This document shows, piece by piece, positions 2,352 through 64,000 of a stretch of DNA of 64,000 nucleotides (position 1 is its first letter; every line of letters starts with the position of its first letter). The position numbers were made by a program, and so were the translations under genes. The notes below the pieces were generated by a model. It was not told where the DNA came from, searched no databases, and saw only the letters and a program-made list of their open reading frames with translations. Origin of the DNA: an uncultured Chloroflexia bacterium (GTDB taxonomy: Bacteria > Chloroflexota > Limnocylindria > Limnocylindrales > CSP1-4); the NCBI GenBank assembly GCA_963722105.1, contig CAVRKQ010000004.1:101759-165758 (forward strand), written 5' to 3'.

Positions 2352-5300
2352 TCAGCCCCTCACGGCGACCATGCTCGACGGCGGGGTCAGCCCCCGGAAC
2401 GCGAGCGATGTCGCCTCGGCCCGGCTCGACGTTCCGAGGCGGGCCAGGACGCGAGACAGGCGTTCGGCGAGGTCGGCCTCGGACATGTCCAGTGCGTCGG
2501 CCATCTCGCGGTTCGTCTGGCCCTCGGTCAGCAGGTGCATGATCCGGCGATCGAGGTCATCGAGGGACCCGACACCGTCGGCCGTGGCCTCCGCTCCAGC
2601 CGCCCGGGCCGGAGCCGCGACAATGGTGGGCTCGAGCCCGCCGGTGAGCTCGACCAGCTCGCGGCCGAGCGGGCCCCGCAGCCAGCGGACGCGCACCTGG
2701 TCGTCGAGGGTCGCCTGGGCGATACGCGACAGGACCAGCTGCAGGTAGCCCCGGATCCCCTCCTGCATCTCTGGCGGGCCGCCGGCGAAGACGCCCGCGA
2801 CTCGCGGACAACAGCGTCTCGAGGTGCGCGTCCTCGGTGAGCGACGCATCGAGCGCCTCGAACGCAGCGCCGCCCGCGGCTGCTGCCGCCGCGGACATCA
2901 CCGCGCGCCACGGCGATCTCGGCTCGCGCCGCGTCGGCCTGCGCGGCCCAGAGCGCGTGCCCGGGCAGCGAGGCCGCAAGCGCCGTCGCCTGGTCGGCGG
3001 CCTCCTCGGCGAGGGCGAGCAGCTCCGTGTCGGCGGTTCGTGCGCCCAGGCGCGCGGCCGTGATCGCGAGCCACGCGGCGACTTCGCAGCGGGCCACCGC
3101 GCCGGCGCGATTCGCGAGCGAGCCGGGCCTGCTCGAAGTGCAGGCGCAGCCCATCCGCGTCCCCCGCCGCGGCACGGGCTCGGCCGCGCCACAGCTCGAT
3201 CTGCCGCGTTCGCAGTCGGGGTCGGCGCGCTCGCGGCCACTGGCGCCGCGATATCGAGCCAGCGCTCCGCCTCCTCGATGTCGCCGAGCTCCAGGTGGGT
3301 CAGCGCCACACCGCCCGCGGCGCGGAACTCCGTCGCCTGGTCGCCGGCGAGCCTTGCGGCGCGGTACGCCTCCTCGCCGCGCGTTGATGGCGAGGTCCGG
3401 CACGACCTTGGCGCGCGCGAAGACATGCACGCCGAACAGCATCTGGAGCTCCTGCCGCTCCCGCTCGCTCTCGGTCACGAGCTCGGCGAAGCGCGAGGTG
3501 ACCCGTCGGATCTCCTCGAGGTGGCGCGCCGATGCGTTCAGGTGAATGGCCGGCGCGTAGTTGATGTAGGCCATGAGGATCACGGTCGACATCACGCCGG
3601 TGCGGTCGTCGAGGCGGATGAAGATCTCGAGCGCGCGCTCGCAGTGGCCCCTTGCGCGCATCACCAGCGGCGCGACCGGCTGGTCCTTCAGCACGGCGTC
3701 GAGCTCCTCGCCCGCGAGCACCCGCCGCGCGAGCTCCTGGACCTTCCCGGCCTTGACCTCGCCGACGAACCACGTCCGGACCCGCGACAGCGCCAGCATC
3801 CCGGCCTCGCGCTCCGCGGCCGCGAGGCTCCGCTCGTCGCCGAGCTCGGTCGCGAGCTCGATGGCCCGGGCGAACGCCTCCTCGGCGGCATCGACGTCGA
3901 CCTCGAGGTCCGAGACGCCGAACCCCTCGCCCAACGTCGACTGCGTCAGCGCCTGTCCGAGCTCGAGCGTCGCTCGCAGCTCCGATGTCGTGTCCCCATC
4001 CGCCGCGGCGCGCTCACGGACGCGACGCGCGAGCTCCGCGGCCGCGTCCTCGTCGTGGCCGGCTCGAAGCGCGGCGGCGCGGCGCAGCTGGACATCGATC
4101 TCGAGGGGTCGATCCTTCGAGGCCTCGGCCAGCGCACCGAGCTCGGCCAGGCCATCCAGCCGGTCGGTCGATCGGCGGAGCACGGCGAACGCGTCGTCGC
4201 GGCAGGCCAGCAGCGTCCGGCGATCGGCCACGGCCGACACGACCGGCAGCGCTGCCTCCACCAGTCGCAAGGCCTCTTCCGGCGCATTCGACTTGAGGGC
4301 CGCCGTGGCGGCGTCGATCGAGAACCGCGCCGCGCGCTCGTTGTCGCCCGCCGCGAGGGCGTGCTGGGCGAGCATCTGGAGACCCTCGGCGGGCGGCTCG
4401 CCGCCCTCGAGCAGGAGGTCGACCACCGCCCGATGGACCTCGCGCCGTCGGGCGTTCGAGAGCTGGGCCGTCGAGAAGTCGCGGACCTGCTCGTGGGTGA
4501 AGGTGTAGTCGGCGGCGTCGCCCTCGGGGTGCGGGAGCAGGAGGCCGGCTTCGACGGCCGGCGCGAGCGCTTCGGCGATCTCCGCCGCGCGGTCATCCGC
4601 GTCGCGGGCTGTCAGGCCCGCTGCCGCACCGGATCCCGCACCTCCGATGGTGACCAGGTCCCGAACGCTGAAGCTCCGGCCGAGGACGCCGGCGTCGCCG
4701 AGCAGGGCCAGCGTCGGGGCCGGGAGCCGCGCGGCCCGGCGCGAGATGAGCGTCCGAACCGCCGAGGGCACCAAGCGGGCCGCGTTCCGCCCGAGCCGCC
4801 ACTCCCCATCGCTCTGCTGGAGCGTGCCGGCCTCCCGATGCGTCCGGGCGAGCTCTTCGACGATGAAGGGGACGCCCTCGGACTGGGCGTGCATCGCGGC
4901 GACGGACTGGCCATCGACCGGGCCGCCGAGGACCTGGCGAAGGAGGAGCGCGGTCTCGGCGGCGGCAAACCTGGACACCCGGAGCCGGCGGACGAGGCCC
5001 ATCCGCTCCATGTCGGCGATGAAGTTGACTGCCTCGGCAACCTTGGCGAGCTCGTCCGAGCGGAAGTTGAGGAACAGGAAGACGGGCTGCTCGGCGACGC
5101 TCCGGATGGCGTAGCGGAGCATCCGGAGGGTGTCGTCATCGGCCCATTGGACGTCGTCGAGGAGCAGCGCGATCGGCTTCACCGTTGCCAGCTCCTGGAT
5201 CGCGATGCCCGCGAGGTCGAAGGTCCGGAGGAGCTTGGCGTCGGGCGAGAGCGTCTCGAAGCCCGGCTCGTCGCGGCCGCTGAGGGCGTCCGTCACGCGC

Positions 5301-9716: not shown

Positions 9717-9859
9717 CTCCGCGGGGTTGGATCAGTCGAACATTTGTGCTATGATCTAACGACCGCCGTCATCTGACGACGCTGCTGCGTGTGGTCGACC
9801 CCCTTTTCGAACGGGCCGTGCGTCTTGCAATCCGTGTTCGGGAAGTGTTGGAGGTCAAT

Positions 9860-10066
9860 GTGACCACCGGAACCATCAAGAAGGTCATCGCCGATCGAGG
9901 CTTTGGCTTCATCACCGCCGACGATGCGAAGGAATACTTCTTCCACCGCGACGGCCTCGACTCCACGCTCGACTTCGATCGCCTCATGGGCGGTGAGAAG
10001 GTCGAGTTCGAGATCGAGCAGGGCCCCAAGGGTCCTCGCGCCAAGCTGGTCCACGCGGCCGCATAG
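9860..10066 (+). CDS. csp: Cold-shock protein (CspA family), using a GTG start.
   Basis: (M)TTGTIKKVIADRGFGFITADDAKEYFFHRDGL...GEKVEFEIEQGPKGPRA carries the RNP1/RNP2 motifs. It has a long conserved 5'UTR shared with the second csp at 42459. Confidence 0.85.
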   Translation: MTTGTIKKVIADRGFGFITADDAKEYFFHRDGLDSTLDFDRLMGGEKVEFEIEQGPKGPRAKLVHAAA

Positions 10067-10071
10067 CGCAC

Positions 10072-10110
10072 CCGGCGACCCGCCTCGTGCGGGTCGCCGA
10101 TCTCTTCATC
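10072..10110 (+). terminator. Terminator-like hairpin after csp. Stem CCGGCGACCCGC / GCGGGTCGCCG, loop CTCGT, then ATCTCTTCATC.
   Basis: Perfect 11-bp GC-rich stem followed by a T-containing tract. Confidence 0.35.
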
Positions 10111-10143
10111 CGGCGGCCCCGTGGTTGATCGACCACGTCCCCG

Positions 10144-11403
10144 TTGGCATTGCATCTGCGCCTGCGCCGGAGAACCGTCATCGTCCGAACCGCCTTCGTC
10201 TCCACGTACCCGCCCCGCCGCTGTGGGATCGCCACGTTCACGAGCGATCTGGCCTCGGTGACGCCCGACAGCGAGATCGCGGTCCTGCACCCGGGCGGCT
10301 CGGCCCTGACCTACCCCCTGAAGGTGCATCACCGGATCCGCAAGCACGAGCTGGCGGACTACCGCCGCACTGCCCAGGACCTGAACCGGTGCGTGGACGT
10401 CGTCTCGATCCAGCATGAGTACGGGATCTGGGGCGGCGAGGATGGCGAGCACGTGCTCGACTTCGTCCGCGCCCTGCGCGTCCCATCCGTCGCGACACTC
10501 CACACCGTGCTGCGCGACCCGACGCCCCACCAGCGCTCCGTCCTGGAGGACCTGGTCGCGACCGCGGAGAAGACCGTCGTGATGTCGCGCTCGGCCGCCA
10601 ACCTGCTCATCAGCGCCTACGACGTGGATCCCGATCGCCTGCAGGTCATCCCGCACGGCGTGCCCAACGTGCCGCTCGTCGATTCCGCGACGGTCAAGCC
10701 GGCCCAGGGAATCAAGGATCGCGACGTGGTCCTGAGCTTCGGCCTGCTCGGCCCCGGCAAGGGCTACGAGCTCGCGATCGAGGCACTGCCGGCGATCGCG
10801 GCGGCGCACCCGGACGTCCTGTACGTCATCGTCGGCGCGACGCACCCGGACCTGATCAGCACCGAGGGCGAGGCGTACCGCGAGAAGCTGCAGGCTGCGA
10901 TCGCGCGGCTGGACATGGAGCGCCACGTCCGGTTCATCGATCGGTTCGTCGGTCGGGACGAGCTCACCCGCTGGCTCCAGGCTGCCGACGTCTTCGTCAC
11001 GCCCTATCCGAACCTCGGCCAGATCGTGTCCGGGACCATGTCCTACGCGATGGGCGCCGGTCGCGCGGTCGTCTCGACGCCCTACACCTACGCCTCGGAG
11101 CTCCTGGCGGATGGCCGCGGGGTGCTCGTCGAGCCCGGTTCGGCGGCGGCGCTCGCCGACGGCGTGGCCTCGGTTCTCGGCGACCCGGAGCTGCGCGCGG
11201 CGATCGGCCGACGGGCCCATGCCCACAGCCGGCGGATGATCTGGCCTGCCGTCGGCACGGAATACAGCTCGGCTCTTCAAGGCGACCGCGCAGGGTTCGC
11301 GCGCCGGCTCGCCGGTCAGGACGGGCGTCCCGATCCATGCTTGAGGACGTCACGCCGGACGCCACGCTGGCGCCCCTGTACCCGATCAGCCGGAAGCACC
11401 TGA
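10144..11403 (+). CDS. GT4-family glycosyltransferase, paralogue of 42742..43872. The start may be a later GTG near 10175-10185. The 3' end overlaps the next gene by about 66 nt.
   Basis: AFVSTYPPRRCGIATFTSDL...GLLGPGKGYELAIEALPAIAAAHPDVLYVIVGATHPD...FVTPYP...E(x)7E-like C-terminal GT-B fold. About 55% identical by eye to 42742..43872. Confidence 0.75.
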   Translation: MALHLRLRRRTVIVRTAFVSTYPPRRCGIATFTSDLASVTPDSEIAVLHPGGSALTYPLKVHHRIRKHELADYRRTAQDLNRCVDVVSIQHEYGIWGGEDGEHVLDFVRALRVPSVATLHTVLRDPTPHQRSVLEDLVATAEKTVVMSRSAANLLISAYDVDPDRLQVIPHGVPNVPLVDSATVKPAQGIKDRDVVLSFGLLGPGKGYELAIEALPAIAAAHPDVLYVIVGATHPDLISTEGEAYREKLQAAIARLDMERHVRFIDRFVGRDELTRWLQAADVFVTPYPNLGQIVSGTMSYAMGAGRAVVSTPYTYASELLADGRGVLVEPGSAAALADGVASVLGDPELRAAIGRRAHAHSRRMIWPAVGTEYSSALQGDRAGFARRLAGQDGRPDPCLRTSRRTPRWRPCTRSAGST

Positions 11404-42212: not shown

Positions 42213-42458
42213 TGCCCGCTGCCCTCGCGCGCTCTGTTGCGCCCTGCGACCTGCCCTGTCCCTACCGGTTCCCCGTCCGGATCTCGAACCATACCGCGCT
42301 GCGCGCGAATTGCCACATCGAGTTTTGGGTCCGGTGCGTGCGAACGTCCGTGCTACGCTGGTGGCTCACCGCAACTCGCGGTGCCTCGCGTGGCCCTACC
42401 TCCTTCTCGAACGGACCGTGCGCTTTGTAGCCCAGTTCGGGAAGCTTTGGAGGTCACT

Positions 42459-42677
42459 GTGACCACCGGAACCATCAAGAAGGTCATCGCCGATCGCGGC
42501 TTTGGCTTCATCACCGCCGAGGATGCGAAGGATTACTTCTTCCATCGCGGCGCCCTCGACAGCTCGCTTGACTTCGACCGCCTGAACGGCGGGGAGAAGG
42601 TCGAGTTCGAGGTCGAGGAGGGCCCGAAGGGTCCTCGCGCCGCCAAGGTCCGCGCCGCTTCCAGCGCCGCGGTCTAG
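42459..42677 (+). CDS. csp: Cold-shock protein (CspA family), second copy, with a GTG start.
   Basis: (M)TTGTIKKVIADRGFGFITAEDAKDYFFHRGALDSSLDFDRLNGGEKVEFEVEEGPKGPRAAKV. Its 5'UTR is about 80% identical to that of the csp at 9860. Confidence 0.85.
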   Translation: MTTGTIKKVIADRGFGFITAEDAKDYFFHRGALDSSLDFDRLNGGEKVEFEVEEGPKGPRAAKVRAASSAAV

Positions 42678-42686
42678 GCAACGCTC

Positions 42687-42727
42687 CAGGCGGCTCGTCC
42701 ACCCGGACGGGCCGCCTCGTGCTTTCT
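42687..42727 (+). terminator. Terminator-like hairpin after csp2. 13-bp stem AGGCGGCTCGTCC / GGACGGGCCGCCT with one mismatch, loop ACCC, then CGTGCTTTCTC.
   Basis: Seen directly. Confidence 0.3.
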
Positions 42728-42741
42728 CACACCGAATCCCC

Positions 42742-43872
42742 ATGGTCCGCGCCGCCTTCGTTTCGACGTACTCGCCGCGCGTCTGCAGCCTGGCGAGCTA
42801 CACGGCCGAGCTCAGCCGGGTCACCCCCGACCGTGAGATCGTCGCGCTCTACTCGGACGAGCCGGCCGACAAGCACGCGTTCGAGGTGCACCACCGGATT
42901 CGCCTCGACGAGCGGCCCGACTACGCCCGAACGGCCAGCGCGCTCGCACGCTGCGCCGACGTCGCGTCCATCCAGTTCGATGCCAGCGTCTGGGGTGGCC
43001 CGGGCGGCGATTCCGTGCTCGACTTCGTCCACGCCCTCGAGATCCCCGCGGTCGCGACGCTCCACTCGCTCCCCCGCCGGCCGACCGAAGACCAGCGCGA
43101 GATCCTCGCGGAGCTGATTCGGACGGTCCAGGCGACCGTCGTCATGTCCGAGACCGCCGCTCGCCTTCTTGTCGACGAGTACGGCGCCGACCGGCGTGCG
43201 GTCGAGGTCATCCCCTACGGCGCACCGGACCTGCCGAGCGTCGCCCCCGAGTCGATCGCACCGACGCTCGGGCTCGAGGGGGTGGACGCGATCCTGAGCT
43301 TCGGGCTCCTCGGGCCGGACAAGGGCTTCGGGCTGATGATCGAGGCACTGCCGGCGATCGTGGCGGCCCACCCGAGGGCGGTCTACGTGATCCTCGGCGC
43401 GACGCACCCTGACGTGGTCCGCGAATCGGGGCAGGCCTACCGGACGTCGCTCGCCGCGCGCGCCGCCGCGTTGAAGGTCACCAAGAACGTGCGGTTCGTC
43501 GACGAGTTCGTCGGGCGGAACGTGCTCACCCGCTGGCTCCAGGCCGCGACGGTCTTCGTCACCCCGAACCCCGACCTCGACACCATGCTCTCCGGCCCGC
43601 TCTCCTACGCGATGGCGACCGGCCGCGCGACGGTGTCCACCCGCTACCCCTACGCGGAGGAGCTGCTCGCCGATGGCCGCGGCCTGCTCGTCGATCCCAC
43701 GCCGGAGGCGCTCGCCGAGGCGGTCATCCGGCTCCTTGGCGACCCCCAGCTCCGGGCGGACCTCGGCGAACGCGCCCATGACCATGCCCGCCCGATGGCC
43801 TGGGGTCGCGTGGGTGAGGCGTATCAGCGCCTCTTCGAACGGGTCAGCGCCCGGCCGCTCGCACCCGCCTGA
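42742..43872 (+). CDS. GT4-family glycosyltransferase, paralogue of 10144..11403.
   Basis: MVRAAFVSTYSPRVCSLASYTAEL...GLLGPDKGFGLMIEALPAIVAAHPRAVYVILGATHPD...FVTPNP...RYPYAEELLADGRGLLVDP. Confidence 0.8.
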   Translation: MVRAAFVSTYSPRVCSLASYTAELSRVTPDREIVALYSDEPADKHAFEVHHRIRLDERPDYARTASALARCADVASIQFDASVWGGPGGDSVLDFVHALEIPAVATLHSLPRRPTEDQREILAELIRTVQATVVMSETAARLLVDEYGADRRAVEVIPYGAPDLPSVAPESIAPTLGLEGVDAILSFGLLGPDKGFGLMIEALPAIVAAHPRAVYVILGATHPDVVRESGQAYRTSLAARAAALKVTKNVRFVDEFVGRNVLTRWLQAATVFVTPNPDLDTMLSGPLSYAMATGRATVSTRYPYAEELLADGRGLLVDPTPEALAEAVIRLLGDPQLRADLGERAHDHARPMAWGRVGEAYQRLFERVSARPLAPA

Positions 43873-43891: not shown

Positions 43892-44560
43892 CTAGAAGCC
43901 GACCGGCTCCTTGATGATCACCACCGTGAACCGGGTGGGCCGGAACTCCTTGCGGATGATCAGGAGCTTCTTGATCTCGCTGTCGATCCCGTAGAGGCCC
44001 TGCATCCGCTCGCTCTCGAGCGGCAGCGTGTGCTCCTCGAGGCGCTGGAGCGCGGTGGCGAGATCCGGGACGAGCTTCTGCGACCCGACTGCGAAGATCA
44101 CCTCGCCGGCGCCAAACGCGAGGGGCGCGAGCTGGCTGCCGGTGTTCGAGGCGACGACGATCGTGCCGTCCTCGGTGATGGCGTGGGCGCTGTTCACGTA
44201 CCAGTCCGGCCCGACGCCGAGCTTCCGCATCGCCCGGAGGCCCTCCGGCGAGTTGCGATCCATCGAGCGGGTGTGCTTCCGGACCGCGTCGTATCGACCG
44301 GACTCTTCGAGCTCTTTCGTGACGCCGATGACCTCGAGCGTGTGCGAGGCGCCCTGTCCGACCTCCGCGCCCTCCGGGAGGATGTCGAGGATGACCTCGC
44401 GGGCCTCGTCTCCATCTTCGACGACGTGGACGGTGTAGCCCTTGGCCTTGAGGGCGTCCGCGGTGCGCTCGATGGTCGCGTCGTCGGCGCGATCGCCGAA
44501 CCCCGGCGCTGGGGATGGATGGCCGGTCGGGTTCGGCTCGAGGGCCGTGGCGAGGCTCAT
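43892..44560 (-). CDS. LUD-domain protein (lactate-utilisation LutC/YkgG-like, DUF162).
   Basis: ...IERTADALKAKGYTVHVVEDGDEAREVILDILPEGAEVGQGAS...AITEDGTIVVASNTGSQLAPLAFGAGEVIFAVGSQKLVPDL. Confidence 0.7.
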   Translation of the reverse strand: MSLATALEPNPTGHPSPAPGFGDRADDATIERTADALKAKGYTVHVVEDGDEAREVILDILPEGAEVGQGASHTLEVIGVTKELEESGRYDAVRKHTRSMDRNSPEGLRAMRKLGVGPDWYVNSAHAITEDGTIVVASNTGSQLAPLAFGAGEVIFAVGSQKLVPDLATALQRLEEHTLPLESERMQGLYGIDSEIKKLLIIRKEFRPTRFTVVIIKEPVGF

Positions 44561-44661: not shown

Positions 44662-45399
44662 TCACCTGCCGACGCGACACCCGCGCGGCGGTGCGTCGAG
44701 GACCTCGGCTCTTCCATCTTCGACCGTCGCCCAGACGATCCCCGAACCGGGCCACGCGGCGCTGCCACGAAGCGCGTCGAGGACGTTGACGGTCCTCGCT
44801 GGAAAGGCAGCCGAGAGGGTCGCCGCGAATGACGCTGCGACCTCTCGAGTCTGCCTCGTGGATCTGAGCAGCAGCATGCTGGCCACAACGTCCGTTGGTG
44901 GGGACTGGGCTCGCACCGCATCCTCCTTCTCGGCAAGTCTCCGGAGCACGGCTTCGAGCCGCCGAATCTCGGAATGGCACTCACACACGATCGTGAGATG
45001 GTCAAGCCCGCGCCGCAGGATGAGATCGGCAACCCCACGCGCAGCTGGGATCGGCACCTCTGGCTGCGGTTGCCATGCATTTCCCAGCAACCTCACAAGG
45101 GCCTCGACCATCGGCGCCTGGAAGCGATCATGCAGACGCCATCCCGCCGTCGGAAACAGTCGGACGCCGAGGTCCGCTCCGAGGCAGGTCGACAGGGCGA
45201 CGAGAGCATCGAGGCTGGCGTTCGCGGTGCCGGCTTCGATGCGCCAGAGGTGTCCAGGATCGACGCCCGAGCACCGCGCGAGATCGGCTCGGGTCACGCC
45301 TGCGTCGGTCCGAAGCTCGGCAACCTGCCTGCCGATCCGCTCACGGAGTGTCCGAAGGAGGCGAGCTCGTTCTCGACTGCCAGGTCCTGGCGCTGTCAT
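44662..45399 (-). CDS. XRE (Cro/C1)-family HTH transcriptional regulator with a C-terminal ~170-aa domain of unknown function.
   Basis: LRTDAGVTRADLARCSGVDPGHLWRIEAGTANASLDALVALSTCLGADLGV is an XRE HTH. Confidence 0.7.
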   Translation of the reverse strand: MTAPGPGSRERARLLRTLRERIGRQVAELRTDAGVTRADLARCSGVDPGHLWRIEAGTANASLDALVALSTCLGADLGVRLFPTAGWRLHDRFQAPMVEALVRLLGNAWQPQPEVPIPAARGVADLILRRGLDHLTIVCECHSEIRRLEAVLRRLAEKEDAVRAQSPPTDVVASMLLLRSTRQTREVAASFAATLSAAFPARTVNVLDALRGSAAWPGSGIVWATVEDGRAEVLDAPPRGCRVGR

Positions 45400-45463
45400 G
45401 TCTACCAGTCAAGACCTGGGCGGTTACCTGCGGCTTATCGCCACTCGTGGCCCCGTGGAGTGG

Positions 45464-45492
45464 TTGTTCGTGTCTCGTGGACACGAACAACG
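45464..45492. promoter_or_regulatory. Perfect 12-bp inverted repeat GTTGTTCGTGTC-tcgtg-GACACGAACAAC, about 65 bp upstream of the XRE regulator start. It is a member of a recurring TTCGTGTC..GACACGAA motif family.
   Basis: Seen directly. Confidence 0.45.
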
Positions 45493-45599
45493 AGTTGACT
45501 GGGCCGATTCGCCGCATCTGGGGCCTGATCGTGTCCGTGGTGCACGAAATCGGCATGAAGGCGACGAAATGGGCCCGCCTCACGGGACTTCCAGCTGCC

Positions 45600-45620
45600 T
45601 TCGTGTCTGACAGACACGCC
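45600..45620. promoter_or_regulatory. Perfect 17-bp palindrome CGTGTCTGACAGACACG (TTCGTGTCTGACAGACACGCC). It belongs to the same motif family and lies between the antiporter stop and the XRE start.
   Basis: Seen directly. Confidence 0.4.
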
Positions 45621-45649
45621 TCGGGGCTCGTCGAGGGGAAGTGGGCCCC

Positions 45650-47206
45650 CTATCCCTCTGCGCGGAGCTCCTCGAGGTCCAGGTCGCGCTCGATGAGGCG
45701 AAGCGTGCGGTCGTTGATCTGGCCGGCGTCGCGGAGCTCGATCACGGCCGTGCGCTGCGCCGCGATGACGGAGCGCTGGATCTCTTCGTGCTCGAGGCGC
45801 TCCTGGGCTCGCTCGGCCGTCTCGTTCGCGTCCTCGGTGGCGAGGTGCTCGGTGCGGTCGCGGAGGCCGGCCTCGAGCCGGTCGATCAGCTCGGCGTGGC
45901 CCGGCCAGGCGACACGGGCTCGGACCAGCTCGTCGAGGCCCGCGCGGTAGGCGGCACTTCGGGCGAGCGTCGTCTCGTCGCCGTCGATGTCGACGCCCTC
46001 GATGCGCGCCCAGCGGACCAGCCTCGGCAGCGTCAGCCCCTGCCCCACCAGCGTGACGACGATCACGACGAACGTCACGAGCAGGATCAGGTTGCGTTCC
46101 GGGAAGTCCTGCGGCAGCGCAAGGGCCGCCGCGAGCGAGACGGCGCCGCGGAGCCCGGACCACCCGACGACCCACGTGAGGCGCCGGGCGAGCTCGGGGC
46201 TGACGAGGGCGATCTGCTGCCGGGTCGAGTTCGGGATGCGGCTGGCGACCTCGACGTAGGCGAGGCGGGTCAGCACCACGGCAGCGGTCACCAGCCCCAC
46301 GATCAGGGCGACCTGGCCGATCGATCGATCGCCGAGCTCTCCCAGGACCTCGGGCAGCTCGAGCCCGACCAGCACGAACGCGAAGCCGTTCAGCACGAAC
46401 CCGACCATCTTCCAGGTCGACAGCCACAGCAGCCGCGTCTGCGGCCCCAGGATCGTCCCGAGCCGGTTGCCGATGATCAGCCCCGCGGCCACCGCCGCGA
46501 GCACGCCCGAGAGCCCGAGCCGGTCCGCCGGCAGGTAGGCCACGAACGGGATCACGAGGGACAGGAGGACCTCGACCGGCGGGTTGTCCAGCCAGCGCAG
46601 GACAAGGGAGGCGGCGACCCCCACGACCACCCCGATCGCGATGCCGCCGACGACGGCAGCGGCGAATCCCGCCACCGCGTCCGCCAGCACGAACGTCCCT
46701 CCGATCGTCGCCAGGAGCGCGGTCCGGTACGCGACGAGCGCGGTCGCGTCGTTGAACAGGGACTCGCCCTCGACGATCGCGGCCGCCCGCCTGGGAAGGC
46801 CGAGCCGGCGGAAGACGGAGGTCGCGGCGATCGCGTCGGTCGGGCCGACGATTGCGCCGAGGGTGAATGCAGCCGCCCAATCGAGCCCGATCGCGAAGCG
46901 TCCCACGATCGCGACGGCCAGCATCGTGAGCAGCACGAGCACGATCGAGAGCCGGATGATCGGCCAGCCGTCGGTCCGGAGCTCCCGCACCGGTGTCTCG
47001 ACGGCCGCCTCGAACAGCAGCGGCGGCAGGAAGACGAGGAGCACGAGCTCCGGCTCCAGCGTGATTCGGGGCAGCCCGGGCACGAATGCGAGCGCCAGCC
47101 CACCGAGCACGAACAGGCTCGGATAGGGCACGCCGATGCGGCGCGCGACCTCGAAGAGCAGCGCGATCGCGACGACGATCGCGAGGATCGCGCTCAGAGA
47201 GTCCAC
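45650..47206 (-). CDS. Na+/H+ antiporter (CPA1/NhaP-type) with a C-terminal cytoplasmic regulatory helix region.
   Basis: About 12 TM helices. LFNDATALVAYRTALLATIGG...WSGLRGAVSLAAALALP is the conserved CPA1 core. Confidence 0.85.
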   Translation of the reverse strand: MDSLSAILAIVVAIALLFEVARRIGVPYPSLFVLGGLALAFVPGLPRITLEPELVLLVFLPPLLFEAAVETPVRELRTDGWPIIRLSIVLVLLTMLAVAIVGRFAIGLDWAAAFTLGAIVGPTDAIAATSVFRRLGLPRRAAAIVEGESLFNDATALVAYRTALLATIGGTFVLADAVAGFAAAVVGGIAIGVVVGVAASLVLRWLDNPPVEVLLSLVIPFVAYLPADRLGLSGVLAAVAAGLIIGNRLGTILGPQTRLLWLSTWKMVGFVLNGFAFVLVGLELPEVLGELGDRSIGQVALIVGLVTAAVVLTRLAYVEVASRIPNSTRQQIALVSPELARRLTWVVGWSGLRGAVSLAAALALPQDFPERNLILLVTFVVIVVTLVGQGLTLPRLVRWARIEGVDIDGDETTLARSAAYRAGLDELVRARVAWPGHAELIDRLEAGLRDRTEHLATEDANETAERAQERLEHEEIQRSVIAAQRTAVIELRDAGQINDRTLRLIERDLDLEELRAEG

Positions 47207-60589: not shown

Positions 60590-61648
60590 ATGGGAGGCGC
60601 GGAGTCGCGACCGGCCGTGCTTGCGGTCGACGGCGGCAACTCCAAGGCGGATCTCGCCCTCGTGGCAGCCGACGGGACGCTGCTCGCGGCGGTCCGCGGC
60701 CCGACGATCTCGCACCAGGCCGTGGGGCTCGATCGGGGGATCGCGAACCTCGTGGCGCTTGCCGCAGAGGCGCGACGCGCTGCCGGAGGCCTCGGCGCGG
60801 CCCCCGACAACAAGAGGGAACCGACCAGGGGCGAACGGGGCGAGCCGATCGCGGCTGCCGCTGTCTACTCCCTCGCCGGCGCCGACTACCCCGAGGACGT
60901 CCGCCTGCTTCGCCGCTCGATCGAGGCCGCCGGCCTCGCGACCTCGACCACCGTCCTGAACGACACGTTTGGCGCGCTCCGTGCCGGCACCCACCGTCCG
61001 TGGGGTGTCGTGCTCATCTGCGGCCAGGGCAGCAACGCGGCCGCGGTCGCGCCGGATGGCCGATCGGCCCGGTTCGACGGCGTGGGCGAGTACTCCGGCG
61101 ACTGGGGTGGCGGCGGCTCGATCGGGCAGGCGGCGCTCGCGGCAGCCGTCCGCGGGCGCGACGGGCGGGGGCCCCGGACGACCCTCGAGCGGAGCGTCCC
61201 GGCGTCCTTCGGCCTCGCCTCGCCGCGAGCGTTGACGAAGGCTCTGTACGTCGGGCAGGTGGACCATCACCGCGTTTCCGAGCTGGCGCCGATGGTCTTC
61301 GAAGCCTCGCAGGGCGGCGACGCCGTCGCCCGGTCGATCATCGACCGCCTCGCCGACGAGCTGGTCGGCATGGCGAGCGCGCTCATCAGGCGGCTGCGGC
61401 TCGGTCGGCTCGATCCGGAGGTCGTGCTCGCCGGCGGCGTGTTTCGGACCAGGGATTCGACGTTCTACGACCGGCTCGAGCGCGGCATCCATGCCGCGGC
61501 GCCCGCAGCGCGGCTCGTGCGGCTTGCGGCGCCGCCGGTGCTCGGCGCCGCGCTGATCGGCCTGGACCGACTCGCGCCCGACGGGGCCGTCTCGCCGGAC
61601 GTGGATGCGCGCCTCCGCGGCGCGCTCGAGCGCTGGGACCCGCGTTGA
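60590..61648 (+). CDS. BadF/BadG/BcrA/BcrD-type ATPase, an N-acetylglucosamine-kinase-like sugar kinase.
   Basis: VLAVDGGNSKADLALVAADGTLLAAVRGPTISHQAVG is the N-terminal ASKHA phosphate-1 motif. ...VVLICGQGSNAAAVAPDG...LAGGVF. Confidence 0.7.
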   Translation: MGGAESRPAVLAVDGGNSKADLALVAADGTLLAAVRGPTISHQAVGLDRGIANLVALAAEARRAAGGLGAAPDNKREPTRGERGEPIAAAAVYSLAGADYPEDVRLLRRSIEAAGLATSTTVLNDTFGALRAGTHRPWGVVLICGQGSNAAAVAPDGRSARFDGVGEYSGDWGGGGSIGQAALAAAVRGRDGRGPRTTLERSVPASFGLASPRALTKALYVGQVDHHRVSELAPMVFEASQGGDAVARSIIDRLADELVGMASALIRRLRLGRLDPEVVLAGGVFRTRDSTFYDRLERGIHAAAPAARLVRLAAPPVLGAALIGLDRLAPDGAVSPDVDARLRGALERWDPR

Positions 61649-61694
61649 TCGACTCGGTAGCTGATCGACTCGGTAGCTGATCGAATCGGTGCCG
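61647..61694. repeat. Three tandem copies of a 16-bp unit (TGATCGACTCGGTAGC x2, TGATCGAATCGGTGCC). They overlap the kinase stop and precede a small hypothetical gene.
   Basis: Seen directly. Confidence 0.5.
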
Positions 61695-62185: not shown

Positions 62186-63484
62186 CTACCGGAAGTCGGA
62201 CGTGTCGACCGCCTCGAAGTCCGAGCCGTGGAGCTGGCCGAAGTCGTGGAGCTGGTCGTCGTCCCAGTTGGCGTGCGGCGCGCCGGTCACGTACATCGCC
62301 GAGCCGTTGTCCGCGAGGTACATGCCGTAGCGCTTGAGCGCCAGCAGGATCACCCGGGCCTGCGGCCCGAAGCCGGAGATGTCGACCGACGACTTGAGCC
62401 GGATTCGGAGCCCCATCGGCGGGTACGTCGAGCAGCTGTAGCTCCCGGCGTCGTGACGGGCCGGGTGGATGTGGCCGTCGCAGGTCCGCGGCGCCGTGAA
62501 CCGGAGCGCGTGGCGAATCACGCCGTCGGCGACCTCGTCGTAGCGAGCGAGCCCCGGCAGGATCGGCAGGCCCGCCGCATCGGCGCTGGTCCAGCCGTTC
62601 GGGCGCAGGGCGTTCGAGCGCAGGTTCCAGATCGCGCCCGAGTCCGCCTGCCACTCGCCGCCTGACTTCCGGGCGTTGAACAGCTCGTACAGGTCGCAGC
62701 CTTCGGTGTCCCACATGAGGATGTGGCGGTCCGAAGCGTTCTCGATCTTGGGGTTCGCCGGGATCGGGTAGGGACCGGCCTCCGACTCGTCGTCCCAGCG
62801 GAACGCGACGTCCGCCAGGGGGGTCGACCCGGTGACCTTGTTGAACGGGATCCCGTAGCCGACGCCGTCATTCCAGTCGGTCGAGCTGAAGTCCGGGTGG
62901 AGCTGCGCCGACAGCCCGATCGAGCCCATCAACGTGGCGGAGTCGGAGCGCACGGGCAGGTCGTCGATGCGGCGGTTCCAGACGTTGTCCGAGGGGAAGA
63001 GCGGGCAAGGCCCGGGGTTCGCTGTCGGCGCGGCGGTCGGGTGTGCGGTCGGCGCGGCGGTGGGCGCCGGCGTCGGCGACGTGGTGGGCTTCGGGGTCGG
63101 AGGAACGGTCGGATGGGTGGTCGGGCCCGCGATGGGGCCGAGGGTCGGGGCAGCTGTCGGGCCAACCGGCGGATTCGGTGTCCTGCCGGGCTTCTTCGTG
63201 GGCTTGGGACCGGCAGCTGAGTTCGGGTCGGTCGTCGCGCTGACCACGGCCTTGGCCGAGGGCGTCGGCACGGCAAGGACCTCGTCCCAGGTGCTGGAGC
63301 CGGGGATGGCGGTCGGCCCGACCGCCGCGAAGGTGGTCGGACCGGCCATCGATGAGGGCGGACCTCCGGGGTTTCCGGCCGCGGTCGTGTCGCTCCCGGG
63401 CTGCGTGCGCGGCACGAGCAGCGCCAGGAGCGGAACGACCATAACCGCAAGCACGAGCAGGGCTCGAGCCCCCCGACGATCCAT
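62186..63484 (-). CDS. Secreted protein. It has a signal/anchor, a long Pro/Thr/Ala linker and a ~260-aa C-terminal domain with 6 Cys. No recognised catalytic motif.
   Basis: MDRRGARALLVLAVMVVPLLALLVP... PTPKPTTSPTPAPTAAPTAHPTAAPTANP... then CPLFPSDNVWNRRIDDLPV...HILMWDTEGCDLYELFNARKSGGEWQADSGAIWNLRSNALRPNGWTSADAAGLPILPGLARYDEV... Confidence 0.65.
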   Translation of the reverse strand: MDRRGARALLVLAVMVVPLLALLVPRTQPGSDTTAAGNPGGPPSSMAGPTTFAAVGPTAIPGSSTWDEVLAVPTPSAKAVVSATTDPNSAAGPKPTKKPGRTPNPPVGPTAAPTLGPIAGPTTHPTVPPTPKPTTSPTPAPTAAPTAHPTAAPTANPGPCPLFPSDNVWNRRIDDLPVRSDSATLMGSIGLSAQLHPDFSSTDWNDGVGYGIPFNKVTGSTPLADVAFRWDDESEAGPYPIPANPKIENASDRHILMWDTEGCDLYELFNARKSGGEWQADSGAIWNLRSNALRPNGWTSADAAGLPILPGLARYDEVADGVIRHALRFTAPRTCDGHIHPARHDAGSYSCSTYPPMGLRIRLKSSVDISGFGPQARVILLALKRYGMYLADNGSAMYVTGAPHANWDDDQLHDFGQLHGSDFEAVDTSDFR

Positions 63485-63694
63485 GCCGGGCAGGGTCGGC
63501 GCTGGCGGGTGGCGTTGTCGATGGCGAAGTGGTCAGGGGCCCGGTGCCGTCCGGCACCGCGGACCCGACGCGTCAGGCCCGCGGGCTCGCCGATTCCACT
63601 CTCGCAAGCCAACCAGCCTGCCTCTCGTGTTTCCCAGTCACGAACCTGGCGGATACCTCGCGCACATCGGCGATCGGGCGACCCCGCCGGAGGT

Positions 63695-63848
63695 GTTCAT
63701 GTCTGTGAGACACGAACCAGCCCCCTGAGGTGCTCGATCCCCTTGTTCGAGGCGCCGATCGTGTCTGTGGCGCACGGCACCTGCGCCAACACCGTCAAAT
63801 CGCCGTTCCTTGGGCTCCTCGCGCCAGATTCGTGTCCCGTAGACATGC
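63695..63848. promoter_or_regulatory. Cluster of three palindromic sites of the TTCGTGTC..GACACGAA family (GTTCATGTCTGTGAGACACGAAC at 63695, ATCGTGTCTGTGGCGCACGG at 63758, ATTCGTGTCCCGTAGACATGC at 63828). They lie upstream of the secreted-protein gene or of a gene beyond the window end.
   Basis: Seen directly. Same core as the sites at 45464 and 45600. Confidence 0.4.
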
Positions 63849-64000
63849 AGGAGGCGGCGACTGGACCCCGTGCCGACTGGACCCGGTGGCGAGCTGGTCA
63901 GCCGGGTGCGGGCTCCGGCGGGCTCGCCGATTCCGTGGGAGCCGCGACCGCCGGCGCGGGGTCGTCGCCGATCTGCATTCGTCGCCACGGCAGGATGACG

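Follow-up and report, generated by a model that had tools for sequence, protein, structure and literature searches.

Two arrays of 21-bp palindromic sites were detected in a stretch of 64,000 nucleotides from an uncultured Chloroflexia bacterium (a Candidatus Limnocylindrales-like member of the Chloroflexota; contig CAVRKQ010000004.1, positions 101,759 to 165,758; this whole stretch is hereafter the window). The first array (locus 1) is located directly upstream of a gene encoding a regulator of 245 amino acids with a helix-turn-helix (HTH) domain of the XRE type, and the second (locus 2) upstream of the gene of a secreted protein of 432 amino acids, p432. We read these palindromes as the operators of the adjacent XRE protein, which would repress its own gene and control p432 in parallel within a tiny regulon, and we give this reading a probability of about 0.6. 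What is observed is the sites themselves, with their geometry and conservation, and the fact that they co-vary and co-occur with the protein. A preliminary description, made from the sequence alone, had proposed an operator set dedicated to the XRE regulator, with autoregulation and a small regulon. The link between the sites and the XRE protein is strongly supported by the conserved positions, the conservation of the arms, the co-variation between recognition helix and arms, the sharing of one motif by two loci and the lack of the second array in a genome without the XRE gene; autoregulation would fit the position of the site at -6, which covers the start codon.

The two arrays of the window

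Each locus is composed of four 21-bp sites with adjacent spacings of 72, 61-62 and 71-72 bp. The consensus of these sites is TTCGTGTC-N5-GACACGAA, which corresponds to an 8-5-8 layout. The preliminary description had counted two perfect palindromes upstream of the XRE gene and three recurrences of the same core at 63695..63848. Both palindromes exist and the recurrence is real, but the sites had been undercounted (four per locus, not two and three) and the long palindrome lies one base to the left of where it had been placed. This long palindrome, which contains site P1, is perfect over 29 bp, with the sequence GTTGTTCGTGTC-tcgtg-GACACGAACAAC at 45463..45491 (12-5-12). The shorter one, CGTGTCTGACAGACACG at 45602..45618, is included in site P3, 30 bp past the stop codon of a Na+/H+ antiporter gene. 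The four sites of locus 1 begin at 45395, 45467, 45528 and 45600 (spacings of 72/61/72 bp). The elements of the two loci are the following, with site scores given out of 16:

44662..45399, minus strand: gene of the 245-amino-acid regulator, with an N-terminal XRE-type HTH domain (residues about 20-77) and a family-specific C-terminal domain of about 160 amino acids
45395..45415: site P0, GTCATGTC-tacca-GTCAAGAC, degenerate (11/16), centred at -6 from the A of the XRE ATG and overlapping the start codon
45422..45443, minus strand: conserved block GGCGATAAGCCGCAGGTAACC between P1 and P0, kept in the alignment of the orthologues
45463..45491: site P1, core TTCGTGTC-tcgtg-GACACGAA at 45467-45487, centred at -78 from the XRE ATG
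45528..45548: site P2, ATCGTGTC-cgtgg-TGCACGAA (13/16), centred at about -139/-140
45600..45620: site P3, TTCGTGTC-tgaca-GACACGCC (14/16), centred at about -211
62186..63484, minus strand: p432 gene, encoding a 432-amino-acid secreted protein with a signal peptide, a Pro/Thr-rich linker and a conserved C-terminal domain of about 270 amino acids
63516..63546, minus strand: proximal element CACCGGGCCCCTGACCACTTCGCCATCGACA, about 35-65 bp upstream of the p432 ATG
63624-44, 63696-716, 63758-78 and 63829-49: array of locus 2, with spacings of 72/62/71 bp and the same orientation as locus 1

Six matches to TTCGTGTC-N5-GACACGAA with at most three mismatches were found in the 64 kb, all six inside the two loci; the expectation from dinucleotide shuffling is 0.25 matches, and none of 100 shuffles reached six. 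With a score of at least 12/16, six sites are likewise detected in the window, all of them in loci 1 and 2. At 11/16 the signal blends with noise (28 sites observed versus about 11 in shuffles). Abundance comparable to that of a repetitive extragenic palindromic (REP) element had been named as a possible refutation of the operator proposal, and this point is answered in part: two arrays are present in the 64 kb, and in about 280 kb of related loci none was found that does not adjoin an XRE or p432 gene. The small regulon is in line with the presence of only two loci, both in the window and in the about 29 kb covered of a related contig, its size being extrapolated from the 64 kb and the about 280 kb of related loci.

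Loci 1 and 2 are paralogous, since they can be aligned end to end over about 255 bp with 75% identity. The whole region upstream of the XRE gene is thus present a second time, in diverged form, at locus 2, which includes the counterpart of the site that overlaps the start codon and has no XRE gene beside it. The adjacent gene, p432, is the presumed second target of the regulator. Its product has no match in Pfam, NCBIfam or PADLOC, displays low-complexity matches only in the PDB, and gave one weak PHROG match ("minor tail"). At least 7,999 homologues of p432 were found, several of them labelled Candidatus Limnocylindrales, and they form a very large family in this clade.

The conserved GATAAG...GGTAAC block between P1 and P0 may carry promoter elements, and GATAAG...GGTAAG-like strings are also present in L002, L008, L013 and L155 (L numbers designate the loci and contigs compared with the window).

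Four genes around the XRE gene are recognized by Pfam: those of a Na+/H+ antiporter, a LUD-domain protein, a glycosyltransferase and a cold-shock-domain protein. The first two form the syntenic frame of the XRE locus:

45650..47206, minus strand: Na+/H+ antiporter gene (Pfam Na_H_Exchanger, E=6e-63), co-directional upstream neighbour of the XRE gene
43892-44560: LUD gene

Conservation and co-variation among relatives

In the orthologues L027, L001, L003 and L004 (68-96% amino acid identity), the same motif is found with site centres at -6, -78, -140 and -212 from the ATG. The centres are at -6/-78/-150/-222 in L155 and at -6/-78/-141/-212 in L002, and both of these have other arms. Site P0 is kept in position and sequence in L027, L001, L003 and L004, and its counterpart in L002 and L155 has arms of its own; the imperfect form of P2 is kept alike in the orthologues and at locus 2. 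In an alignment of six sequences, the frequency of the major allele is on average 0.89 in the 64 arm columns versus 0.68 elsewhere, and 36 of the 64 arm columns are invariant versus 21 of 139 elsewhere. Each site retains its own idiosyncratic imperfections across this alignment, in which the gene-proximal half-site GACACGAA of P3 is invariant. By comparison with the 96%-identical relative, two substitutions are found in 64 arm positions versus 20 in the 161 other positions (Fisher p=0.044).

The distant homologues keep the 8-5-8 layout, a TGNCA-like centre and the periodic arrangement, but their arms differ:

L002: TTGTTGCC
L007: GAGATGTC
L008: TTGTGCG
L010: TTGTCGCC
L011, L012 and L014: (C/T/G)CGCGAC
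L016: CGTTGAC
L013 and L015: GGCGTCG, with a 9-bp centre

In distant homologues and paralogues, these differences of the arms accompany differences of the recognition helix, and L004 and L007, which are paralogues of a single metagenome-assembled genome (MAG), have differing motifs. The following correspondences were observed:

Helix DPGHLWRIE: arms CGTGTC
Helix HRAYLGRIE: arms TTGTTGCC
Helix AQSYLWKIE: arms TYYWTYSC
Helix DRSHLARIE: arms TCGCGAC

The second locus follows the first in this respect. The p432 orthologues of L148 (80% identical) and L149 (77%) are preceded by four sites with a period of 70-72 bp and with arms unlike those of the window. The contig of L148, read on as L155, displays the same antiporter-XRE-LUD synteny as the window, and its four XRE-upstream and four p432-upstream sites fit a single degenerate consensus, TYYWTYSC; with a matrix trained on those same sites, no other site of comparable score was found in about 29 kb. 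On the contig of L150 and L154, the XRE gene is deleted to an 18-nt remnant of its 3' end, and no array is present at p432 (upstream spacer of 62 bp). The antiporter-LUD junction with its XRE remnant indicates that the regulator was deleted in that lineage. In this junction (L154, 7557-7889), a gap of 332 bp separates the antiporter gene from the LUD gene and contains the remnant aggtcctcgacgcgcacc and a palindrome-like string, GGTTCCATTCATGCGGAAC. The co-variation of the motif at both loci in two genomes, together with the joint absence in a third, constitutes the strongest support for a dedicated factor and a small regulon. The neighbourhood upstream of p432 is itself conserved: a RES-domain protein is encoded beside an Rv2175c-like winged HTH protein in L150 (5776-7104) and L148 (4009-5314), a pair that resembles the Xre/RES-type toxin-antitoxin pairs.

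The antiporter/LUD frame is syntenic in L001, L148/L155 and L154, and the synteny of the XRE locus (antiporter-XRE-LUD, or XRE-dxs) is kept across deep divergence. Within this frame the XRE protein diverges faster than its neighbours: that of L155 is 56% identical to that of the window, versus 87% for the antiporter, 83% for the LUD protein and 80% for p432.

The spacings between adjacent sites in 19 arrays, many of which are kin by descent or tandem duplication, are 61-63 bp (24 cases), 71-73 bp (20 cases) and 50 bp (2 cases, in one array). The two main classes differ by about one helical turn, and both recur in lineages with unrelated arms. Spacings quantised by about 10 bp are predicted by binding on the same face of the DNA, and no requirement at the RNA level is known to impose them.

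In the mechanism that we favour, the protein would be a dimer of XRE-type HTH domains fused to domains with a restriction-endonuclease fold, and four dimers would occupy the four sites, which lie integral numbers of helical turns apart (about 6 or 7). Such spacings put all four sites on one face of the DNA, so that cooperative assembly is possible, and the C-terminal domains probably bridge the dimers; this helically phased architecture predicts a nucleoprotein complex of higher order. At its own gene, occupancy of the promoter-proximal site covering the start codon would result in autorepression, and members of the XRE and controller-protein HTH families are typically autoregulators acting on palindromes (PMC2175313; PMC12565409). 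The array copied upstream of p432 would place p432 under the same control, which makes the regulon tiny and local, and the specificity of the protein and the sequence of its sites would diversify fast and jointly. What we infer in this scheme is that the protein binds the sites, that it does so cooperatively, which way it regulates, and what its C-terminal domain does. If it is true, the XRE protein and its sites are among the first regulator-operator pairs that can be inferred in Candidatus Limnocylindrales (uncultured Chloroflexota abundant in soil and fresh water). They would also provide an unusually clean natural experiment in the evolution of specificity, since one two-locus circuit is found with at least three site sequences in genomes whose flanking proteins are 80-87% identical.

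Several observations weigh against this scheme. Between p432 and the array of locus 2, located at 140-365 bp upstream, there is a proximal element that relatives without arrays also keep: CACCGG(G/A)CCC(T/C)GAC(C/G)A(C/G)TT(C/G)GCCATCGACA is conserved in L148-L153, array or no array, and probably serves as the promoter or leader of p432 itself. The p432 array is absent from L151, L152 and L153, and since L152 and L153 are close relatives (p432 78% identical), the regulon link is not stable. In L013, L014, L015, L017, L008 and L011, extra arrays are found directly downstream of the XRE gene, in convergent 3'-3' spacers (with dxs or another gene) where no gene starts. A scan with the sigma-70 consensus detected no promoter-like hexamers in either locus region. 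Finally, the conserved acidic residues E/D99, D125 and E140 of a putative nuclease-type active site in the C-terminal domain are not accounted for by a pure repressor.

The XRE protein and known systems

The HTH domain of the regulator is recognized by two Pfam profiles over residues 22-77, HTH_31 (36.6 bits for a cut-off of 27, E=5.8e-9) and HTH_3 (25.2 bits for a cut-off of 23). The AlphaFold model has a mean predicted local distance difference test score of 90.4 for the full-length protein and of 93.6 for the C-terminal 160 residues. The helices modelled in the HTH domain (8-33, 37-44, 48-56 and 63-73) agree with the five-helix fold of 434 Cro, and Foldseek superposes about 60 residues on C.BclI, ClgR, C.AhdI and SinR with a root-mean-square deviation of 0.6-0.9 Å.

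The C-terminal domain has no match in Pfam, and no match at the sequence level to the PDB or to any restriction endonuclease (REase). Its core is predicted to be alpha-beta-beta-beta-alpha-beta (helix 95-104, strands 109-117, 122-130 and 135-142, helix 148-165, strand 171-179). The informative Foldseek neighbours all belong to the PD-(D/E)XK superfamily (R.BspD6I small subunit, YaeQ, R2 endonuclease domain, XisH, SfsA, McrC, BglII and BamHI), with weak matches of at best E=2e-3 and a template modelling (TM) score of about 0.4; at the level of the fold, the modelled domain may thus belong to this superfamily. Residues E/D99, D125, E140, S143, E144 and K158 are invariant or nearly so in the family. 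The position of the canonical lysine of the catalytic motif is occupied by H142, replaced by Q in some members. Active sites of the variant forms E-x-Q and E-x-E are those of BglII and BamHI. If the model holds, a restriction-enzyme fold would have been recruited into a transcription-factor-like protein outside a restriction-modification (R-M) context.

More than 251 homologues of the regulator were found, nearly all of them metagenomic. In an exhaustive profile search, the homologues form 551 clusters at 50% identity, and the layout of about 250 amino acids, or a fragment of it, is essentially the only one among them. This single architecture indicates that the C-terminal domain is specific to the family. 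In species-representative genomes, among which the source genome is not included, 23 loci were found, all in Chloroflexota and mostly in Candidatus Limnocylindrales; some MAGs contain two paralogues. An actinobacterial origin, or an identity as a WhiJ/BldB-type XRE protein, was rejected because the homologues come from Chloroflexota MAGs. No relative was found in viral contigs, and the PADLOC and PHROG matches of the regulator are confined to the generic HTH, so that an origin in a phage or mobile element was rejected as well. No description of this family, nor of phased four-site arrays, was found in the open-access full-text literature.

Four groups of known systems display similarities with the regulator. 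The controller (C) proteins of R-M systems (C.PvuII, C.AhdI, C.BclI, C.Esp1396I) are also small dimers of XRE-type HTH that autoregulate from palindromes. C.BclI (E=4.7e-4), C.AhdI and C.Esp1396I rank among the closest structures to the HTH domain, and PADLOC returns "Control_protein" with E=6.7e-5. The C-box consensus of these proteins is GACT-N3-AGTC (PMC2175313). This core is literally included in several lineage motifs (L012 GACTCACAGTC, L016 GACTCGCAGTC and L010 GACTCACAGTC), and the window has the variant GTCT-N3-AGAC; moreover, recognition helices that start with DRSH, HRSH or HRAY are similar to the C-protein classes HRTY and DR(T/S)Y. However, C proteins belong to R-M operons, whereas no R-M gene was found in the annotated neighbourhoods of the homologues (the unannotated loci L004-L026 were not gone through gene by gene). 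A C-box operator, GACT-N3-AGTC-N4-GACT-N3-AGTC, consists of two abutting pairs within about 35 bp, whereas here single 21-bp sites lie 61-73 bp apart in arrays of at least four, and the regulator reaches 245 amino acids with its large extra domain. According to Foldseek, C.BclI, ClgR, C.AhdI and HipB are about equally close to the HTH, so that its likeness to C proteins is of a kind general among XRE proteins.

A natural fusion of a C protein and a REase is represented by CR.NsoJS138I, the HTH part of which autoregulates its own promoter (Liang and Blumenthal 2013, PMC3850674). The regulator has its domains in the same order, with an HTH of the C type at the N-terminus and a domain of PD-(D/E)XK fold, putative in the regulator, at the C-terminus. 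Nevertheless, the C-REase fusions belong to the PvuII orthologues, have been shown to cleave and lie beside a methyltransferase (PMC3850674), whereas the C-terminal domain of the regulator has no sequence match to REases, the lysine of its ExK motif is H or Q, and its gene is an orphan, vertically inherited in Chloroflexota, with paralogues.

Two-domain XRE repressors with several operators include the CI proteins of the lambda/434 type, SinR, BzdR and the Xre-RES complex (PMC12204516, PMC12565409). They likewise combine an HTH_3 or HTH_31 domain with a second domain for oligomerisation or sensing, and they are autoregulators with cooperative binding to several palindromes, but they have neither a nuclease-fold domain nor phased four-site arrays (about 6-7 turns) copied as a unit to a second gene.

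Lastly, in the REPtrons formed by REP elements and REP-associated tyrosine transposases (RAYT), and in sopC/SopB of the F plasmid, lineage-specific palindromes co-vary with an adjacent protein gene, sometimes flank it in inverted orientation, or form tandem units that each contain one palindromic binding site. The regulator is neither a HUH/Y1 transposase nor a protein of the ParB type, and it has no partner ATPase; the Pfam, NCBIfam, PHROG and PADLOC scans detected no HUH/Y1 domain in it. As far as seen, the arrays differ from REP elements in their copy number (two in 64 kb) and in their link with two particular genes. A partition-site function (parS/sopC-like) was set aside, as no ATPase partner occurs in any context.

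Possible turnover of the arrays and alternative explanations

Compared with the array-less spacers of L152 and L153, locus 2 is an insertion of about 300-345 bp between the AI-2E-transporter-like gene and p432: the distance from the stop codon of the former to the ATG of the latter is about 100 bp in L152/L153 and about 415 bp in the window. The array is bracketed by two copies of GGAATCGGCGAGCCCGC, which represent an identical direct target duplication of 17 bp, and the downstream copy retains the old frame and stop codon of the AI-2E-transporter-like gene. The two copies are the following:

63573..63597, minus strand: direct-repeat copy B, sense GGAATCGGCGAGCCCGCGGGCCTGA; 3' end that the AI-2E-transporter-like gene had ancestrally, with its stop codon, left behind on the downstream side of the array
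63898..63934, minus strand: direct-repeat copy A, sense GGAATCGGCGAGCCCGCCGGAGCCCGCACCCGGCTGA; present 3' end and stop codon of the same gene, its first 17 bp identical to copy B

Tandem repeats with a 16-bp unit were also noticed at 61646-61690 (TGATCGACTCGGTAGC, 2.8 copies) and at 63858-63897 (CGACTGGACCCCGTGC, 2.4 copies), the latter within the inserted segment, between the AI-2E stop codon and P3 of locus 2.

Elsewhere, the XRE gene of L013 is flanked by inverted arrays of a 62-bp unit (2601-2938 and 3742-3965; 5.4 and 3.6 copies), and the whole cassette is located between dxs and tlyA/nadK, on the opposite strand. L014, L015 and L017 share a convergent XRE/dxs layout with arrays in the spacer. 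The tandem units of L148, L149, L008 and L015 are nearly identical, which indicates recent expansion or homogenisation. A CRISPR-like nature of the arrays was rejected: their "spacers" are kept from one locus to the other, and within the tandem arrays they do not differ.

A different explanation is a low-copy self-propagating cassette, in which the HTH would bind the palindromes, the PD-(D/E)XK-fold domain would cut at or near them, and the arrays, sometimes with the gene, would be copied, expanded or inserted through break repair or gene conversion, regulation being secondary. Analogues of such a cassette would be the REPtrons (REP/RAYT) and transposons whose binding-site arrays are subterminal. 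The insertion of locus 2 with its 17-bp duplication that includes the old stop codon speaks for such a cassette, as does the fact that the copied segment is exactly the P3-P0 unit. The inverted arrays and opposite placement of the gene in L013, the ongoing homogenisation suggested by the near-identical tandem units, the presence or absence of arrays among close lineages, and the evolution of the XRE protein, much faster than that of its neighbours, are in agreement with it. So are the fold and the E/D99-D125-E140-x-H/Q pattern, which is like the variant active sites of BamHI/BglII type. Nevertheless, we consider the cassette unlikely, although it ranks first among the alternatives. Two arrays only are present in the 64 kb, and every array seen in the about 280 kb of related DNA adjoins an XRE or p432 gene; the XRE locus stays syntenic across deep divergence, and no relative was found in viral contigs. 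The canonical lysine is absent and the Foldseek matches are of the low significance given above. A duplication of 17 bp is atypical of transposition, and the conservation of the -6 and -78 positions from the ATG is what a promoter-bound function predicts.

The operator reading and the cassette are compatible and do not exclude each other. A domesticated fusion of a controller protein and an endonuclease can be conceived, in which the nuclease-fold domain would still act on its own arrays, and site-specific cutting would drive the copying, the tandem expansion and the insertion of the arrays, as at locus 2 with its 17-bp duplication, and the rapid joint turnover of protein specificity and sites. 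We consider this reading improbable, a little behind the cassette as such. If the nuclease domain were active on the arrays, this would be a new route by which arrays of binding sites spread, and a self-propagating regulator-operator cassette of an undescribed kind.

The operators proposed here must also be weighed against palindromes that act as hairpins of RNA or single-stranded DNA in an intercistronic or 3'-untranslated transcript (REP-like mRNA stabilisers, terminators or a structured leader), the XRE gene being a mere neighbour. All arrays begin just past a stop codon and could be co-transcribed (antiporter-XRE, AI-2E-p432, XRE/dxs), the 241-nt region folds better than its shuffles (z = -3.4), and the arms differ among lineages yet stay palindromic. 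The other strand folds equally well (z = -3.3), as for any palindrome, so that folding of the RNA cannot discriminate between the two explanations. In the clade alignment, the hairpin cells are paired at 70.8% versus 70.9% in shuffles, and the changes mostly break pairs. This lack of compensatory change within the clade, together with the helical spacing classes, favours recognition of DNA by a protein over RNA hairpins. Several conserved sites are moreover half-sites unable to pair: in L002, three of the four sites (P3, P1 and P0) keep one arm only, and the left arm of P3 in the window is a further case. All sites of a genome share one arm sequence, which implies a constraint on sequence and not on structure, and the spacings are quantised by about 10 bp. 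A scan with the terminator consensus found no terminator-like T-run in either locus region. A known RNA family was rejected, as Rfam gives no match at the gathering threshold in the whole window. Hairpins are for these reasons very unlikely.

The least probable explanation, to which we give hardly any weight, is that another factor binds the sites, or that they are a functionless, neutral leftover of segmental duplication: locus 2 is plainly a duplicate of locus 1, but the arms are kept better than the spacers, the geometry is the same in lineages with different arms, and the sites co-vary and co-occur with the XRE gene.

At least 120 metagenome stretches contain the exact motif, and none among the matches listed encodes an XRE homologue; these matches are mostly due to chance or to an unrelated paired-palindrome operator. 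The latter is formed by ACTTAGTGTC-N5-GACACTAAGT and ACTTCGTGTCA-N4-GACACGAAGT, about 51 bp apart, directly upstream of a gene with a GGAGG ribosome-binding site, and was found in the metagenome contigs L045, L057, L066, L083, L102, L115, L116 and L119. It shares an 8-nt arm with the motif of the window by coincidence.

Two other repeated features of the window were noticed. A pair of genes encoding a cold-shock-domain protein and a GT4 glycosyltransferase is present twice (9836-11148 and 42435-43710), with 73-88% nucleotide identity between the copies, one of which lies just past the XRE and LUD genes. In the intergenic region 540-900, directly after a gene end, degenerate units of about 54 bp rich in GGGCTCG(C/A) were detected (Tandem Repeats Finder, 559-671; families D4/D5), and this run of repeats may represent a further family of repeats or operators.

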